Shown here in pieces: positions 3,127 through 49,161 of a stretch of DNA of 64,000 nt. The position numbers and the translations under genes are program-made. Each line of letters opens with the position of its first letter. The stretch's first letter is position 1. Source of the stretch: a virus (Duplodnaviria; Caudoviricetes); IMG/VR virus record IMGVR_UViG_2871003000_000003, positions 1 to 64,000 of that record, one strand, 5' to 3'. The notes under the pieces are model-generated. The model made no database searches. It had not been told where the DNA came from and saw only the letters and a list, made by a program, of their open reading frames with translations.

Positions 3127-5220
3127 ACCCATAGGACTAATAACTTTTCCGTATTTATGGTACATTTTAGACACTGTTGTATCTCCATCTAAACTTAACC
3201 AGTCTGGATACATTGTTTTTGCAGAAGTTTTAATTCCTTCTTCAAACAAGTCTTCGTTTACTTTACCTTTTCCGTGTAGCTCTTCTGTATAAAGAAATAC
3301 AAGTTTTGGGAACAATACAGGCTTTTTATTTCCGTCTTTTCCTTGTCCTTCTCTATGTACTCTAAGAAATGTTTTTGAAGCCATTTTAGCAAAAGAATCT
3401 GTTCCCAGACCAAATGTAATGGTGATGAAGGGATAGTCCCCTCTGCTGGATGAGACAGTATTAAATTTGTATTCGAGTCCTTGATAACCTTGTGCCATAT
3501 CACGTTCTACTTTTCTCATAGCGTAGTCATGAGCTTTCTGTTCAAAATCTGAATGTCTATAATCCAGTAAGTTATCTGCAATATCATAAAATTCACGTTT
3601 GTATTTTTCATAACTCTTTTCAGCATATGGCACTAACACTTCGTCAATCTGTGGAAGTGTAAAACCACCATATTCCTGACTCGCAGCGCTTAATGTAATA
3701 TCACCAATCACATCAAATGCTGTGTCTAATGTTTTTGGCTCGTTATACCACACATTACCCATTTCGAATCCACCACGCATTACTTCTGCGACATTAAACA
3801 AGCAACAGTTCCCTGTTGGAATTCCTCCTTCCAAAATAAAACTATGATCATCTTCTACTTCAAGACACCAAACCTCTGCTTTTGGATTAAGACAGTCTGG
3901 AACGATATTTTTTACCTTCCATGTTCTATCTGCCTGATTTGAATTGATTTGATAGTTTATTGTTGTTTTTTTTCTAACACCATAATTTGTTACTTCTCCA
4001 GTTTTGTTTTTTGTTGATGTAACATAATATCCAGCAATGTTTAATAAGTCATATATTTCGTTATTTAAATCTCCGGTCACCTGAACGCTTCTAAATTTTA
4101 TATTTTCACAATTTGTTAAAGCGCCATCAGCCGATAAAAATCCATCAATATAATATTTAATATTTTCACAATTTAACATCAACCATGGTATTTTTTTCTC
4201 ATGAATGTTCACCATTCTGACAATCCCATCACCATATAAACTCTGCGGATATGTTACAGAATATCCAACATCTGAGAATCTATTTGCAAATTCATTTTTA
4301 TGTCCACATAATCTTACATGCATTGTTGGTATTTTGTTATCTTCTACAATAGCCCCATCCCCCATAGAAAATCCAAGACACCATAACAATTTTTCAGTTT
4401 TGTTTAGTTCATCCCATGAATAATTTGTTATATCTGGAGCTGCGATTAATTTATCTCCAATTTTTAGATCTGTTGTCTCACTGCCGTCTTTCAAAATCCA
4501 TCTATGGTTTGCAGTGCAAAATACATCTTTTGTTTTGCTCGAACCTCTTTTAAAAGTTACTTTATTTATATTTTGCCATCCATACGACTTAACTATTGCA
4601 TTTTTCCATCTGCCTTTATGAGTTAAAACTTTTACATTGTCACCGTCTTTAAAATCATAAAAAGATTTAACTCCAAGTTCGGTAATGAAACGTGTGTCTC
4701 TTCTAAAGCAGTTCATCGTATCCCTTCTAGCTGACATGTCATGAATATAAATATATCCATCATTGATAGCCTGCCTTTCTTCTACTGTCAGGAAGAATTT
4801 CTTATACAACTGCTTGTTCAATTCATTAAATACAAGACTTCGCTTTGTAGATACGAGAGCACTATCAGTGTTACTGTTTTCCTTATCCCCGATGTACATA
4901 ATTTTCTGACTCTCTTCGTATACCGTATCCATCATATGTACAAAATCAAGTTTATAATTACGATATTGCTGATACTGATATCCTACTTTTGGAAACAAAT
5001 CAAGAAGTGTTTTTTCTACAATATTATGAATAAAACCTACAGGAACTTCGTCATTCTCAAAGTCTTCTTCATCAACCTCGTTAAGAACTCTGTTGCAGAT
5101 CATTCCATATTCATCTTGTGAAAATGTAAAATTTTCTCTCTGTGCAGATTTATCAATAGCATTAATAATTTTCTGTTCGTTATACTCTTCTAATGTTCCA
5201 TCCTTCTTAATTACTTTCAT
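3127..5220 (-). CDS. nrdD: class III ribonucleotide reductase, exon 1 (ATP cone; contains intein)
   Basis: N-terminal VIKKDG ATP cone, YIHD, QEYGG, FPKL, YPD; ends ISPMG. Confidence 0.93.
3808..4710 (-). mobile_element. intein with LAGLIDADG endonuclease, 301 aa
   Basis: Begins CFRRDT; block B TANHRW; LGFSMGDG and IDGFLSADG; ends VWCLEVEDDHSFILEGGIPTGN followed by +1 Cys; excision restores TMN|CCL. Confidence 0.92.
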
Positions 5221-40175: not shown

Positions 40176-43100
40176 TCATTGGTCAGAATTAATTAAATTA
40201 CATACAAGTTCGTTTAGTTCATTCTTTTTACTTTTTGGTATGTAACACACAAATTCTGTATACATATCTAAACCTTCCTTATATCTATTAATTTCATTTT
40301 CTTCTTTACAAAAATCAATATTGTGTTCATTGCATACCTTAACTAAAACGTCCCTTAAATGATACCCATCGCAACTATCCAATCCTGTTTTCTGAATATC
40401 AATATCTTTGCTTATAACATTATCAACTTCAATGTTCGTATAACAATTATTCCCTTTTCCGTCTAAATCAGTTATGCAAACCTTATTGTTAATTAGGTTA
40501 CACCATATCTTTTCGAACGTTTCACTCTTGACTAGTCTATTTTCTTCATACCTTGAAAAACTATAATATCCTACGGCTCTTACCCTTAAATTAACCAAAT
40601 TCATAGTCTATATTCCTCCTATTATTGTTGTCAATCTACCACCACAGTTAATCCACTCTTTATATTCTCTTCTGGTTTACTCCACTCTTCATATTCCAAG
40701 ACTGTATCATCTTCTTCATAGGTGTCTCCATCCATGGAAATCAGTTTCCCATCCTTACTCGCAGCGCAACCGATGAATATGGATTTTCCGTAATATTTTT
40801 CTTTATCTTTTGGAATCTTTAATCTATATGAGATGTAATCGTAATCTTTATTTTTAATCAGATCTTTAACTGTCAAAATATTCTTTCACCTCATCGAATC
40901 CTTTATAAGTTATTCCTTCTTCAATTGGTTTTAAAAAATCGCATAAAAATTTTAAAATTTTCTTACAGTCATCAACTGTTTCCACCTTATCCAAATTCAA
41001 CTTTGGAGTATAATATGTTCTTGTATTGGACAAACCTTTTATATTCTCTTCCTCTATATCTTTGCTATGATCAAATGCTCTTAATTCTTCTTTTGATAAC
41101 CATTTAATCCATGCACCACAATCACTACAATACAATCCCGTATTGTTACCCTTTTGATCAGTATATAAATCTGTGCTGCCACATTTTTTACAACAATTTT
41201 GATACATTTATTTTCCTCTTTTTTTTATGAAACTATTCTTTCATTCATCTTATTACAAAAAAATAATATCTTCGTATTCTCCTGTATAACATGGCATGAT
41301 TACTGTATTAAAAAACTTTTTATCAATCCTCTCATCACACCACATTTTCCCGGATCTAAATCCTATGAATGATTTTGATGCTTCCACCCAGATTAATTTT
41401 GTTCCGTCTGTAAATTCTGTTCGTAATTCATATTTACTATGAAATTTTTTAGAAACAATTTTACCACATGTTTTCTCAATTCCTGACATAATATCAATCG
41501 CTCTATAATAATCAAACCCAACAACAGCCCATTTTTTTATCAAACATTTTTTTAAATCCTGGTTCATTATCTTACTACATCTCCATTACTTATTTTGGAA
41601 TATCTTTGTTCCAACTCCTTCGACTTCAACTTGACAAACTGCTTGTCTTACAAAAAATTTATCGCAGCACTTATTAAACCATTTCTCAATTTCATCAAAG
41701 TTTCCATAATCTCTCAAATCGCCAAATACTGACACAGTTGTTGAAGCCATACATGATTTATCAGGATTATGCCATATGCTCATCTCCAACGTTCCTTCTG
41801 ATCCCATTGGAAGATATTTATGTTTGTCTTTTACCTCATAATTCTCATCATATTCAATATTGCTCATACCTCTGTAATCAACTTGTTTTCCAAAGATATC
41901 AATAATTTCTTCATCTGGTATTTCGCCAATACTATTTAATCGGAAACTTGCATTCACATGTGTCCACTGACTCATAATTTTCACCTCTTAAAATTAACCT
42001 TTCATATATTTGCTCAAACAACAAGTGTCTTTTCCAATATTTTTGTCATCATTCTGATATATAATTTTTTCCACCACGTAAGCTTTATACCCATATAATC
42101 TTCTACAAAATCTTCTGTTCTCATGTTTCTAAATTTCAATATTAGTGAAACTTTTTCATCATTTACATTCAATCTCAATTCACCATAGTAGCTGCGCAGC
42201 TTTACTCACATGTGAACGTTTGTCCTTCCTTTTGTTTTATAATTACTGTTTAAATATTCTCTTACAAATTAAAAAGTTTATAGTCTTCCCATTGGTATCC
42301 GCTTCCACACGGAACAATATTCGAATACAATTGAGAAATAGTCGTGTTATTCGCATCAATCCACGCTTTTCTCCATCTATATCCTCTTGCTCCGGCATTA
42401 GGATTAACTGTAATCCATTCTTCACCGTCACTGAATCTAATTTCTGATCTGATATAACATGATTTTGAGATGCCTTTAAATACCGTTTCAATTCCAGATT
42501 CGTTTTTATCCTTTTCGATTTCTAACAATTTATTTATCCCAACATCCATATCACTCGTATAGATAATACATTTTACAATTTGATTACTACATGTTGATCA
42601 GCACATTATAATATGCCATTTTCAGAAAAATAAATAGTGCAGAAATAATACGGGGATCTTCCATCCCCGAACCCCTGGAATCCTTGTTATAACAGTAATA
42701 GAAAAAATTATTACCGTTATAACAAGGCTAAAAATGGGATGTTTTAATTTTCCGAATTCTGCAAATTATGGCATCAAATAAAATGCGTTGTAACAACTAC
42801 ATGCTCCTTGCATTTAATTCCTTCTCCACTTCTTCCCATGTAAACTGTTCTGTAATAAGTTCATGAGTATATTTTTCCCAAATTGTTTTATAATCAACAC
42901 CCATTAGTTGGCTCATTTCGATTAAAGCATCGACAACTTTATTGATCTTAATTTCTACCATCTTCTTCTCCATTTGAAAGTGAATTTCTATTTTATTCTT
43001 TTTCTGTAAAACTAATCATTCTATTTCCATCTTTCGTTGCATATACAGTAATATATATATCTGCTTTTTCAATTTCCGTAATTAATTTATCTTCTAGTAT

Positions 43101-43911: not shown

Positions 43912-44133
43912 TCAATCAAATATCTCTGCAATATAATTATCTTTTTGAACTGTTGTTATTGTATTGCTACATCCGTCTGTCCTAAATGTATATTCTCTCA
44001 TATTGCATCTGCGCTCTTTTATTATTCCGGATTCGTATTCTTTTCGTATCTTCTTTGCATATTCTGTTCTTTGATATTTAAGACAGAAATATTCTTTCCC
44101 ACAAACAGATTTTACTCTGTCTGTGGATTTATA
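43912..44133 (-). CDS. 73 aa TRD-like extension in the -1 frame of the C5 methyltransferase
   Basis: Open -1 frame YKSTDRV...RTDGCSNTITTVQKDNYIAEIFD immediately after the slippery site. Confidence 0.7.
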   Translation of the reverse strand, partial: YKSTDRVKSVCGKEYFCLKYQRTEYAKKIRKEYESGIIKERRCNMREYTFRTDGCSNTITTVQKDNYIAEIFD

Positions 44134-44139
44134 AAATTT
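44099..44139 (-). promoter_or_regulatory. putative -1 programmed ribosomal frameshift signal
   Basis: In-frame A_AAT_TTT (44139-44133), 6-nt spacer, 11-bp stem CCACAGACAGA/TCTGTTTGTGG. Confidence 0.75.
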
Positions 44140-45971
44140 CCGGAATTAATATCCTCATATAACCTATCAAGTGCAATCTCAAATGCGCCAACACCTGAGA
44201 AAAAACTACTCAATTTCAAATTATCAAACAAATAAGGCATAGCTTTATAAAGCTCTACATATATGTAATAAAGAACATCTACTACAATTGAATTACCTGC
44301 CTGTTTATATAATTGACTATTTGAAACTCCGGCTTTCTGTGCAGCATCAAAATTCTCATCAGAAAATCCCATGAGCCTAAAACACTCTTTTGGAGTTAGC
44401 TTACGGATTCTAATATCATCTGTAACTGGTAGAATTGCTGTTTTAAATCCTTCTGGTCTTGTTGTTAATGTAGGAGAATACCCGCTTTTATCTACATGTT
44501 TATTAAATGCATTAATTGTATCCCCCGAGTTGCAATCATTTTCATTTAAAGTTTCAAGTGCTTGTTTAAAAAATCTTTCTTTAGGTTCAATTCTACAAAT
44601 GCCTGTTTCTGTCGCAGTAATTGTTGGACATGTATTCCCATTATCCTGGACTCTACCTCTTCTCGTTTTGCTATCTGGATAAGACAAATCTGCAACACCA
44701 CCAATTTCACATTCGATATATCCCTGTTTTGTTGCTTGTTTGATTGCAACCTTACTTCCTTCTCCTTTATTCGTAGTTAATGTTGGAGACAATCCATTTT
44801 CCGAATAAACAGACCCATTCATACCATTACCAGATGGGTTGATATTCCCAATTTTTAGAACAGCAGTTCCTTCAGATTTTCTGTTGCTAATTCCTCTATC
44901 CTCTCTCGCTGCAATGCAATTTGCATATTCGATTAACTCTGGTTTATTATATGATTTATCAATTCCACATAATACATGTGGCTGTCTTCCACCACCTTGC
45001 ATAGTCGTTAAAGTAGGACTAATATGACTATCATCCCACACGCCTCCGGCATATCCTGTTCCGAAATCTTCTCGATTTACATTTCCAATAAATTTAGGTT
45101 GGTCAATTTCTACAACTCTTTTATCACCACATGAATCAATTGTTCTTAATGCACCACATACATCATTTTTATAAGTTCGAAGCCCCTCATCTTTTCTTTC
45201 TTCACACACAAATTTATCATTTTGACTTTTCTCATATTTACTTTCAATACTCGATATAAATTTTTGGGTTTTCTCATCAGAAATATAGAACTTCTCATCG
45301 ACTTCATCTTCCAATAAATCCTTCAATCTTAATCCATTATCAAAAGGTTCTGGAAATTCAAACTTACCATTATCCAAATCCTTTTTAATAAATAACAGAT
45401 ACACACGTTCTCTGTTCTGTGGAATTCCATAATTTTTAGCATTCAGAACCTTCCAATATACGTTATATCCATATTCTTCTAATTCATCAGTAAATAATTT
45501 AAATGTTGTGTCTTTAAACTGTTTTCCAACGATATTCTTTACATTTTCATAAATTCCAAAATTAGGTCTATTTGATCTAACTACTCGTAAATATTCAACA
45601 AGAAGAGATGATCTTGTCTTTTCAATATTTTTACTTCCACAATTCGGACAACAATCTCTTTTACTCCAATGAACTGTTAATGGATTATATTCAAAATGCT
45701 TTCCATTATCATCCACACAATCTTTACAAGTCCACACAGAGCCTTTTTGTTTACCAGCCACACTGAAATCCTGGCACGGTGATCCTCCACAAATCATATT
45801 AAAATTATCTAACTCAGTTTCATCAACCTTTGTAATATCGCCAAGATTTTTACTTTCATCAACATTATGAATAGCACAATAACTTTTTGTTGCATATTTA
45901 TCAAATTCACAAAAATTTACAAGTTCCCACTGTTTATCTGAATTATATTTTTTATCCTTATTTTCTACCAT
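44112..45971 (-). CDS. DNA (cytosine-5) methyltransferase, circularly permuted, long variable region
   Basis: GGSPCQDFS (IV), ENV (VI), PQNRERVY (VIII), RKLTPKECFRLMGF (IX), YKQAGNSI (X); motif I FSGVG lies after motif X. Confidence 0.93.
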   Translation of the reverse strand: MVENKDKKYNSDKQWELVNFCEFDKYATKSYCAIHNVDESKNLGDITKVDETELDNFNMICGGSPCQDFSVAGKQKGSVWTCKDCVDDNGKHFEYNPLTVHWSKRDCCPNCGSKNIEKTRSSLLVEYLRVVRSNRPNFGIYENVKNIVGKQFKDTTFKLFTDELEEYGYNVYWKVLNAKNYGIPQNRERVYLLFIKKDLDNGKFEFPEPFDNGLRLKDLLEDEVDEKFYISDEKTQKFISSIESKYEKSQNDKFVCEERKDEGLRTYKNDVCGALRTIDSCGDKRVVEIDQPKFIGNVNREDFGTGYAGGVWDDSHISPTLTTMQGGGRQPHVLCGIDKSYNKPELIEYANCIAAREDRGISNRKSEGTAVLKIGNINPSGNGMNGSVYSENGLSPTLTTNKGEGSKVAIKQATKQGYIECEIGGVADLSYPDSKTRRGRVQDNGNTCPTITATETGICRIEPKERFFKQALETLNENDCNSGDTINAFNKHVDKSGYSPTLTTRPEGFKTAILPVTDDIRIRKLTPKECFRLMGFSDENFDAAQKAGVSNSQLYKQAGNSIVVDVLYYIYVELYKAMPYLFDNLKLSSFFSGVGAFEIALDRLYEDINSGNFINPQTE

Positions 45972-47715: not shown

Positions 47716-49161
47716 TTATATATACATTACTTTCCTTCCCTTATATAATTTATTCTCTCTAATTGCGTTTCCAACCGATCCGGCAGAAAATGTTTCCCCA
47801 AAATCGTTTTCACTTTTTTCTGATAAAATATGAACTGATGGGTATTCGATAAAAATATTTGAATTTGGGTATTTTTCTATTTTTAATGTTTTTGAATTTT
47901 TTATATTATGTATTCCTTTGCGAATTGGTATGTTACGTTTTAAATTATTATTTTTCAAAAAATTACACACGGTTGTTACAGAAATACCAACTGTTTCTGA
48001 AATTTTAGTAGCAGAATAACCTTCACTATTTAACTTATGAATTTCTTTATATATATTTTTTCTTGCTTCTTTGTTACAAATAGAAAAATCTACTTTATCA
48101 ATATTTATATATTTACATATATCAGATTGATATATTTGTTCTTTCATATATTTTAAATTTGATTCCAAGGCTTTTATTCTGATTATTTTATACCCGTTTT
48201 TAATTGCCAATTCATCCTTTTTTGAATCAATAAACAAATCTTTCTTTAACCTATTAGAAATGTACCCATGTCCATACCCGCCATCTATTTCTACAATTAT
48301 TTTTAAATCTGGAAGTAAAAAATCGTATCTTCCATAAGTTTCTTTTTTTGTATATGGATTATAAAACACACACCAATTTTGTTTTCTATCAAAAATATAT
48401 TTAACGCCTAGTTGCTCTAATAATGAAGTGAAAAATCCTTCTGGATAACTCCTATTTTTCATACATGAACAACCAAAATGATTTTTCTGCAAATTATTTA
48501 TTATTATATTACGATGTATCCTTCCACAACTAGGACATTGTATATCTATTCTTTTATTAGAATACGGCGTGTACATTGATGCATTTTTTATTTTTTCTTC
48601 AATTGTTTCCCCTATGAAATATTCAATAATTTCAGGAGTTATTGTTGCTAAATCGTTTATTCCAGGAACGACAATTGTGCTGCTACAACAAGGGCATAGT
48701 GTTTTACATCCGCTTTTGCTGTTTAAAGACATCCAGTATTCTTTTTTATATTTTTGTTTAACATAATGTTCCCCACATTCAAATCCGCATTTATAACAAA
48801 TAAATTTATACCCTTTTCCATCTTCTCTACTTATAATTGTCATATTGTTATATTCATCTTTAATATGATCTCCAATTTTATATTTCCATGCTCTTTTTTG
48901 ATTGGAATTATTTCTTTTTGCGCCGATTAGTAAACCAATATTAGATGTTCTTAATTGACTGGCATAAATCCAATTTTCTGTCTTATTAAATAAGATTTTT
49001 AATTTTGGTTTCTTATTATTCTTATTCTGATAATCAATTATTTTTAAATATCCTTTTATATCATCATATTCAAATTTAACATCTTCTCCAATGCATTCTC
49101 TCCATTTTATCGTCTTTCCTGATTGTGAATGAGGTAATTCTTCTAAAAATACTTTTCTCAA
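47716..49161 (-). CDS. Zn-ribbon / PD-(D/E)XK-type putative homing endonuclease
   Basis: CYKCG, CPCC..GINDLAT..PE, CPSCG; YDF..IIVEIDGGYGH..DSKKD..IIRI; C-terminal HTH; very low GC. Confidence 0.7.
   Translation of the reverse strand: MRKVFLEELPHSQSGKTIKWRECIGEDVKFEYDDIKGYLKIIDYQNKNNKKPKLKILFNKTENWIYASQLRTSNIGLLIGAKRNNSNQKRAWKYKIGDHIKDEYNNMTIISREDGKGYKFICYKCGFECGEHYVKQKYKKEYWMSLNSKSGCKTLCPCCSSTIVVPGINDLATITPEIIEYFIGETIEEKIKNASMYTPYSNKRIDIQCPSCGRIHRNIIINNLQKNHFGCSCMKNRSYPEGFFTSLLEQLGVKYIFDRKQNWCVFYNPYTKKETYGRYDFLLPDLKIIVEIDGGYGHGYISNRLKKDLFIDSKKDELAIKNGYKIIRIKALESNLKYMKEQIYQSDICKYINIDKVDFSICNKEARKNIYKEIHKLNSEGYSATKISETVGISVTTVCNFLKNNNLKRNIPIRKGIHNIKNSKTLKIEKYPNSNIFIEYPSVHILSEKSENDFGETFSAGSVGNAIRENKLYKGRKVMYI

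Follow-up and report, generated by a model that had tools for sequence, protein, structure and literature searches.

A likely programmed -1 ribosomal frameshift site at the 3' end of a phage C5 DNA methyltransferase gene, followed by target-recognition modules in the -1 frame

To our knowledge, programmed ribosomal frameshifting in phages is almost confined to tail chaperones and a few other genes. The tail assembly chaperone G/GT undergoes a -1 frameshift at a conserved site close to where the short form ends, and the longer isoform has the same N-terminal body (PMC10885494, citing Xu et al. 2004). In Escherichia coli dnaX (tau/gamma), an X_XXY_YYZ heptamer with a hairpin about 6 nt downstream and a Shine-Dalgarno (SD)-like element 10 to 14 nt upstream gives two products of one gene in a set ratio (PMC5009743). 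The 3' end of the C5 DNA methyltransferase (MTase) gene described here, from a virus of the Caudoviricetes, has the heptamer register and hairpin placement of dnaX, possibly with an SD-like element as well, and may likewise give two products, which remains untested experimentally; with G/GT it shares a conserved site near the 3' end of the short form and the prospect of a longer isoform with the same N-terminal body. It departs from dnaX, where the shift at A_AAA_AAG ends almost at once and makes the shorter product, in that a shift at A_AAU_UUU would lengthen the protein by a module. It departs from G/GT in belonging to another protein class, with swappable DNA-recognition modules, a junction found across unrelated protein bodies, and a serial repeat of that junction (locus L056).

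The C5 MTases of the Bacillus phages SPR, phi3T, rho11s, and SPbeta join one catalytic core to serial target-recognition (TRD) modules with a conserved T-L-like core, and such multispecific enzymes are presumed to protect the phage against several restriction systems. All multispecific MTases known to us are encoded in one frame, their TRDs lying between motifs VIII and IX. The enzyme described here also has one catalytic core serving several serial TRD modules, but whereas all TRDs of the Bacillus phage enzymes occupy one frame between VIII and IX, the TRDs added in this family are C-terminal and, we infer, reached by recoding. M.EcoHK31I is a C5 MTase that likewise uses a second frame of the same DNA for a needed part, motif IX; however, its beta subunit is nested wholly in the alpha gene, initiates on its own, and is a separate polypeptide without a TRD cassette (PMC2836561). 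In phasevarion MTases, reading-frame changes alter MTase expression or specificity (PMC3711429), but those changes occur in DNA, at long simple-sequence repeats, and act as heritable on/off switches; no such repeat is present in the window, and among the MTase relatives only a sub-lineage with a run of C residues (L020, L021, and L035) might behave in this way. M.BssHII is a circularly permuted C5 MTase, and engineered permutants of M.SssI and M.MpeI (PMC5944983) resemble the present family in departing from the I-to-X motif order while keeping the fold; unlike any of these, the present family has its breakpoint between motifs I and II, giving the order II...X-I. In the open literature searched, which did not extend to most subscription journals, frameshifting that appends recognition modules to a DNA MTase had no precedent that we could find; the closest reports concern M.EcoHK31I, phase-variable MTases, and erm leader frameshifting. 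What appears to be undescribed, as far as the open literature goes, is the likely use of -1 programmed ribosomal frameshifting (-1 PRF) by a protein class not previously linked to it, together with an unusual modularity and portability.

The window, by which we mean the whole 64,000-nt stretch of DNA analyzed here, comes from a 166-kb virus record classed as a provirus and estimated to be 99% complete; source names on related proteins and three MAG matches indicate hosts among gut Clostridia. All genes of the MTase region lie on the minus strand. The MTase is permuted, starting at motif II, passing through four TRD-like repeats of the (S/C)PT(L/I)T type between motifs VIII and IX to motifs IX and X, and ending in motif I. 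PCQ, ENV, QNRER, and GNS motifs are recognizable, the N terminus aligns only to positions 22 to 65 of the Pfam PF00145 profile, and FSGVGAFE, which matches canonical N termini, sits after motif X, so that the canonical I-to-X order is not met. A C-terminal FSG(I/V)GAFE segment was found in 159 of 160 family proteins, and the whole permuted family begins just before motif II, at ATG or TTG. The identification of the tail as motif I rests on phmmer, a weak BLAST alignment, and an AF2 strand-helix: the tail resembles the N termini (motif I region) of canonical MTases in a phmmer comparison with 45 of them, and in the AF2 model of the L019 protein, whose core resembles M.HhaI and M.HaeIII (Foldseek E about 1e-12), the segment forms a confident strand-helix (pLDDT 74 to 88). 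Searched alone, the 50-aa C-terminal tail had no Pfam match, and no named or cultured phage in the phage collection searched had the motif I tail. The number of TRD modules differs among the relatives. With serial TRD modules on one catalytic core, the window MTase fits the definition of a multispecific MTase, which is an inference from its sequence; methylation of distinct targets has not been shown.

Several additional features of the region and the family were observed. In many family members (L016, L019, L024, and L028, around position 4001) a TTG start follows AAAGGA, and ORF calling restricted to ATG truncates such MTases at MICGGSPCQ; many database versions are N-terminally short, with lengths of 480 to 560. 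A Cys-rich insert (CKDC...CPNC) after motif IV (window positions 45600-45750, minus strand; MTase residues about 80 to 118) is conserved across the family and has weak zinc-ribbon and HypA-like Pfam matches. Certain close relatives (P0026, P0048, P0088, P0092, P0107, P0114, P0117, P0253, and P0284) reach 790 to 990 aa and carry Hint/intein domains (PF07591, PF13403, and PF14890); inteins have entered the MTase family. A 113-aa ORF of the window (40866-41207, minus strand) has an N-terminal zinc ribbon, with weak sub-threshold matches to TFIIB-type ribbons and Lar restriction alleviation proteins, and is possibly a further anti-restriction gene of the same early region.

Table 1. Features of the MTase gene, its 3' junction, and the -1 frame extension (window positions)
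Feature	Position	Strand	Basis or remark
C5 DNA methyltransferase (MTase), 619 aa, zero frame	44112..45971	minus	PF00145, E = 1.6e-59, 202 bits
GAGGA, possible Shine-Dalgarno-like upstream stimulator	44152..44156	minus	12 nt before heptamer; read from sequence
Slippery heptamer A_AAT_TTT	44139-44133	minus	X_XXY_YYZ, zero-frame register (GGA AAT TTT)
6-nt spacer ATAAAT	44132-44127	minus	Spacing constant in ungapped 58-column alignment
Stem-loop, stimulatory (putative)	44126-44099	minus	11-bp stem, 6-nt loop; fold and covariation
-1 continuation, 73 codons and stop TGA (43912-43914)	43912..44133	minus	Linker and one B-type TRD module

In the zero frame the MTase gene ends ...TCC GGA AAT TTT ATA AAT CCA CAG ACA GAG TAA, and the elements around this end are collected in Table 1. 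The arms of the stem, CCACAGACAGA (44126-44116) and TCTGTTTGTGG (44109-44099), include one G-U pair, and the loop between them, GTAAAA, holds the zero-frame stop TAA (44114-44112). RNAfold placed 12 pairs in the stem at -23.3 kcal/mol (z = -4.85), a stability reached by none of 200 shuffled sequences. AAGG, AAGGA, or GAGGA occurs at a spacing like that of the window's GAGGA (11 to 12 nt upstream) in 15 of 21 distinct upstream contexts; it is possible that an SD-like stimulator adds to slippage, and the evidence is no more than suggestive since the element is also constrained by coding. The junction pattern is present at one place only in the 166-kb genome. An Rfam search gave only a sub-threshold snoRNA match, on the opposite strand, which was taken as spurious. 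Between the MTase stop and the end of the extension ORF there is no terminator-like site, and a promoter scan of this interval returned one weak match and nothing convincing. Bypassing of the T4 gene 60 type was considered and rejected, as there are no matched take-off and landing codons and the conserved register of the heptamer fits simple -1 slippage.

A scan of IMG/VR gave 80 loci encoding MTase relatives (46 to 88% identity), which share ancestry, so that locus counts are not counts of independent events. AAATTTT stands in the zero-frame register in 68 of the 80, mostly 25 nt ahead of the stop; its register is correct in all junctions compared (69/69), and in an ungapped alignment of 37 distinct junctions it is invariant. 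Stem positions pair in 97.1% of cells, compared with 37 to 49% when the 3' partners are slid, and double-sided (compensatory) changes are seen at 5 of the 11 pairs; the many G-U pairs fit an RNA helix and not DNA pairing. In three loci (L052, L075, and L077) this position is occupied by a stem of unrelated sequence (GGAGAAGA/TCTTCTCC). The glycine codon before the heptamer is GGA in 43/43 distinct contexts, as opposed to 41% of the glycine codons elsewhere in these genes, and the Asn-Phe of the heptamer is encoded AAT TTT in 45/46, with variation at neighboring synonymous sites. These comparisons show both the geometry of the signal and its conservation and covariation at the nucleotide level. 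Among the species-representative genomes searched, the junction pattern matched only three MAGs.

The -1 frame of the window is open from stop to stop for 77 codons (43912-44145), 73 of which follow the slip point. A TAA two codons before the heptamer closes it upstream, and its first ATG, GTG, or TTG is codon 44 after the slip, past half of the conserved module. Of the 68 heptamer loci, 59 continue into a -1 ORF no shorter than 45 aa, with a TRD-like core in 58 of these 59, and open frames of 51 to 118 aa persist in the 59 loci, whose MTases are 55 to 88% identical to that of the window. Distinct extensions (n = 46) have a median length of 80 aa; in the +1 frame, used as a control, the median is 10 aa and the maximum 22. 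We computed pN/pS only downstream of the stem, where the -1 ORF and the MTase frame do not overlap, and obtained -1 frame values of 0.13 to 0.16 for four module groups, with lengths of 65, 73, 82, and 96 aa (0.14 for the module type of the window), compared with 0.7 to 6 in the two control frames of the same DNA. The -1 ORFs are thereby shown to be under purifying selection as protein, and their lack of start codons is equally plain: 55 of 59 extensions run through their first 16 post-slip codons without an ATG, GTG, or TTG, the E-type ORFs of 96 aa lack one throughout, and a -1 frame start upstream of the slip site is absent from all 68 IMG/VR loci. In P0242, P0243, and P0246 the -1 frame does contain an ATG shortly ahead of the site, and separate initiation is possible there. 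Seven loci of the L037 type keep the heptamer and have lost the extension, and in three others (L007, L066, and L077) the extension is broken, which indicates that it is accessory and dispensable.

The 77-aa -1 ORF of the window had no match in Pfam or PHROGs; tblastn matched it inside the annotated MTases of Bacteroides phages SJC10 and BT24. Residues 21 to 74 of the ORF are 59% identical to segment 352-405 of the BT24 MTase, the last recognition segment before motif IX in an enzyme of canonical order, between motifs VIII and IX. The B-type module of the window extension contains ...KYQRTEYAKKIRKEY...SNTITTVQKDNYI... In a large protein database at least 19 MTases have this module type ahead of motif IX and four have it behind motif X; it was also found in 38 short gene-called ORFs without MTase motifs. 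Because the same module type is internal in other MTases, the extension is shown to be a true TRD-type module, as opposed to a frame left open by chance. Elsewhere in the window, the ORF at 47716-49161 has MTase motifs at neither end, and the heptamer is absent downstream of it.

Taken with the conserved long -1 ORF that lacks initiation, the in-register heptamer and the covarying stem 6 nt downstream (5 to 9 nt being required) meet three criteria for -1 PRF, an upstream SD-like stimulator being only suggested. We consider it likely that the 3' end of the MTase gene is a programmed -1 ribosomal frameshift site; the trans-frame protein, the slippage itself, and its efficiency are inferred, and there is no direct protein evidence. 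The original prediction, made before any comparison with other sequences, had named the heptamer, the 6-nt spacer, the 11-bp hairpin, and a 73-aa open -1 frame without a start of its own, and these held in every detail. The junction peptide that it gave, SGNFYKSTDR, is the correct predicted sequence (...SGNF/YKSTDR), and its view that the ORF ends in a TRD-like segment was borne out by the BT24 match. Its reading of the site as -1 PRF is supported, since homologues keep the heptamer, a stem with compensatory changes, and an open -1 frame, and independent initiation of the downstream ORF, which it had said would refute that reading, is unlikely given the scarcity of early start codons. Its further proposal, of two isoforms in a fixed ratio and an additional methylated site, is still inference, with neither a trans-frame protein nor extra methylation shown. 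It had not foreseen a family-wide modular feature, natural in-frame versions, or a second MTase architecture with the same junction.

The extensions fall into at least eight TRD-like types, with cores such as PTL, PTI, ITT, or AMCL, and some -1 ORFs contain two modules (L004, L008, L053, and those of the 96-aa type). Extension modules are at most 34 to 40% identical to internal TRDs of the same family, and so add module types without duplicating those already present. In L056 (6163-6590) a second junction, with heptamer, fully paired stem, and a stop in the loop, follows the first module; the stem includes a compensatory A-U to G-C change, and behind the MTase come first a module of the A type, in the -1 frame, and next one of the B type, as in the window, in the next -1 frame. 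Access to this second module would take two successive shifts. Several gene-called TRD-only ORFs in the databases end in a junction-like ENF..P...-stop, and junctions are found at the ends of P0242, P0244, and P0250. Locus L082 encodes a canonical-order MTase, with motif I N-terminal, that ends in the same junction: against L009, 39 of the 45 junction nucleotides are identical (87%), whereas the 180 nt upstream are unrelated (29%). Since the junctions are alike where the upstream sequences are not, junction and modules behave as a unit common to gene families, and since canonical-order enzymes carry the cassette too, permutation is not what enables it. In a deletion variant, P0245, the entire motif I segment is absent and C- and B-type modules follow motif X without a gap; this is probably a derivative without activity, or else an artefact of assembly.

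Natural in-frame fusions of MTase and extension exist. L019 (= P0122) differs from its neighbors in a 5-nt deletion that eliminates the stop, so that frame 0 runs on into the -1 frame and the fusion is encoded directly, and other in-frame fusions are found in separate lineages: L035/P0125/P0126, P0123/P0130, P0128, and P0268/P0279. The fusions of L035, P0125, and P0126 belong to a sub-family whose switch region is a C-run, those of P0123 and P0130 use a different linker, and those of P0268 and P0279 are on canonical-order enzymes. About six fusions covering the whole query were present among the 120 best matches. In the old fusion P0123 (L088) both the heptamer and the junction stem are absent, as expected if these elements serve only recoding; partial junction remnants are left in the recent fusions L019, L089, and L090.

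Two observations were made at the margins of this set. The sister sub-family ends ...CGEF(S/A)P..., without AAATTTT, and has indels in a run of 5 to 9 C before the stop, which leave one and the same TRD extension out of frame (-1) in L020 and L021 and in frame in L035, P0125, and P0126; either homopolymer phase variation or another kind of slippery site may underlie the difference. More small ORFs lie downstream of P0128, a locked fusion (L089:2701-3161), one with a weak PF00145 match, and these are probably further TRD modules.

In the mechanism that we propose, the majority of ribosomes would read GGA AAT TTT and six further codons and stop at the TAA in the loop, giving the 619-aa enzyme. 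A fraction would pause when the stem of 11 to 12 bp, lying 6 nt downstream, reaches the mRNA entry channel, and the Asn-tRNA on AAU in the P site and the Phe-tRNA on UUU in the A site would slip one base back, from AAU to AAA and from UUU to UUU. Both slip codons are read through a wobble pair, and it may be inferred that this should ease re-pairing. Translation would then go on for 73 codons in the -1 frame, and the long isoform would consist of the 619-aa body, a linker, and one extra TRD module after the C-terminal motif I. A_AAU_UUU does not belong to the bacterial sites that are well characterized as efficient, and it goes unmentioned in a large review of recoding, according to which A_AAA_AAG is shiftier in E. 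coli than U-rich sites are (PMC5009743); we expect the efficiency to be modest, an inference without any measurement. Heptamer and stem would act as a portable socket behind which related phages put different TRD modules, singly or paired.

The most serious rival to frameshifting holds that the 45-nt junction, an inverted repeat of 11-6-11, is a site of DNA exchange between phages, and that the out-of-frame modules are an untranslated reservoir of silent TRD cassettes, expressed only after a rearrangement or an indel. In its favor, module content behind the junction is mosaic, two unrelated MTase bodies carry the same junction, the junction is repeated after the L056 module and at the ends of P0242, P0244, and P0250, and small indels give in-frame variants; moreover, selection can keep silent cassettes open too. 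However, no recombinase domain was found in nine neighboring ORFs and no invertase or recombinase gene is adjacent, the extension modules have no close internal counterparts in the family (at most 40% identity), and the register of the heptamer, the choice of GGA, the constant 6-nt spacing, and the covariation of the G-U-rich arms are left unexplained. We therefore regard silent cassettes as an unlikely explanation for the site. It is likely, on the other hand, that the conserved junction also eases homologous exchange, as a secondary role beside frameshifting.

The remaining alternatives seem to us very unlikely. The -1 ORF might yield a small protein made of the TRD alone and acting in trans, its translation beginning close to the MTase stop by reinitiation or at a non-canonical start, and gene callers do annotate such ORFs where an ATG lies just upstream (P0242, P0243, and P0246); but the -1 frame of the window is closed shortly before the heptamer and offers no start until far into the module, an upstream start is found in 0/68 IMG/VR loci, E-type ORFs have no start at all, and the natural variants are covalent fusions. 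A change of frame by DNA-level phase variation, or by transcriptional slippage at A3T4, would take the place of any action of the ribosome. Phase-variable MTases are well known (PMC3711429), and the C-run indels of the sister sub-lineage look like homopolymer switching. Against this, A3T4 is far shorter than tracts that slip in replication or transcription, the junction sequence is identical over many independent assemblies, and a covarying downstream RNA stem has no role in such mechanisms; no long homopolymer or short tandem repeat is present at the window junction, where A3T4 is all there is, and the criterion for a phase-variable MTase is not met. No read-level data were available for this question. 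Finally, the extension might be the decaying remnant of a second, downstream MTase gene, with heptamer and hairpin arising by chance. The ORF is indeed a start-less fragment homologous to an internal MTase segment, and deletion variants or broken copies exist (P0245, L007, L066, and L077). This explanation is contradicted by the comparative data: long open frames are kept in 59 loci with diverged MTases at a pN/pS of about 0.15, the heptamer is invariant, the stem covaries, and one junction is common to several module types.

On the frameshift reading, what the long isoform does is less certain than how it would be made. That the extra module gives it an additional methylation specificity is, in our judgment, as likely to prove wrong as right; the inference is drawn because the modules belong to real TRD types, do not repeat the internal ones, evolve under purifying selection, and have in some cases become fixed as fusions. 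A caveat is that a C-terminal TRD has no evident route to the DNA. In both architectures the extension branches off behind motif I or motif X of the catalytic domain, not at the classical VIII-IX loop. In the AF2 model of the L019 fusion (51-row alignment) only the catalytic core is confident, with all TRDs and the extension at pLDDT below 50, and the model is therefore uninformative on the position of the extra module. A role of the extension in DNA tethering or regulation remains possible. A bolder reading, against which we would lean slightly, is that the junction is a horizontally mobile "recoding socket" that plugs DNA-recognition cassettes onto unrelated cytosine MTases, including two in series, so that one gene might yield a graded ladder of isoforms with different methylation specificities. 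Were it true, it would amount to translational diversification of anti-restriction protection with the main enzyme unaltered.

If confirmed, this would be the first recoding event known to control the composition of a DNA methyltransferase, and it would be evidence that a C-terminal position at the end of the catalytic domain does not prevent TRD modules from working, in permuted and canonical enzymes alike, and that a short RNA signal can move with protein-module cassettes between gene families. Recoding research would gain a natural data set of great depth: thousands of sequences, stems with compensatory changes, and locked-frame controls supplied by nature. For annotation, confirmation would make it probable that hundreds of "hypothetical" small ORFs 3' of phage MTases are trans-frame extensions. 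The finding is also relevant to the evasion of diverse restriction systems by large gut phages.
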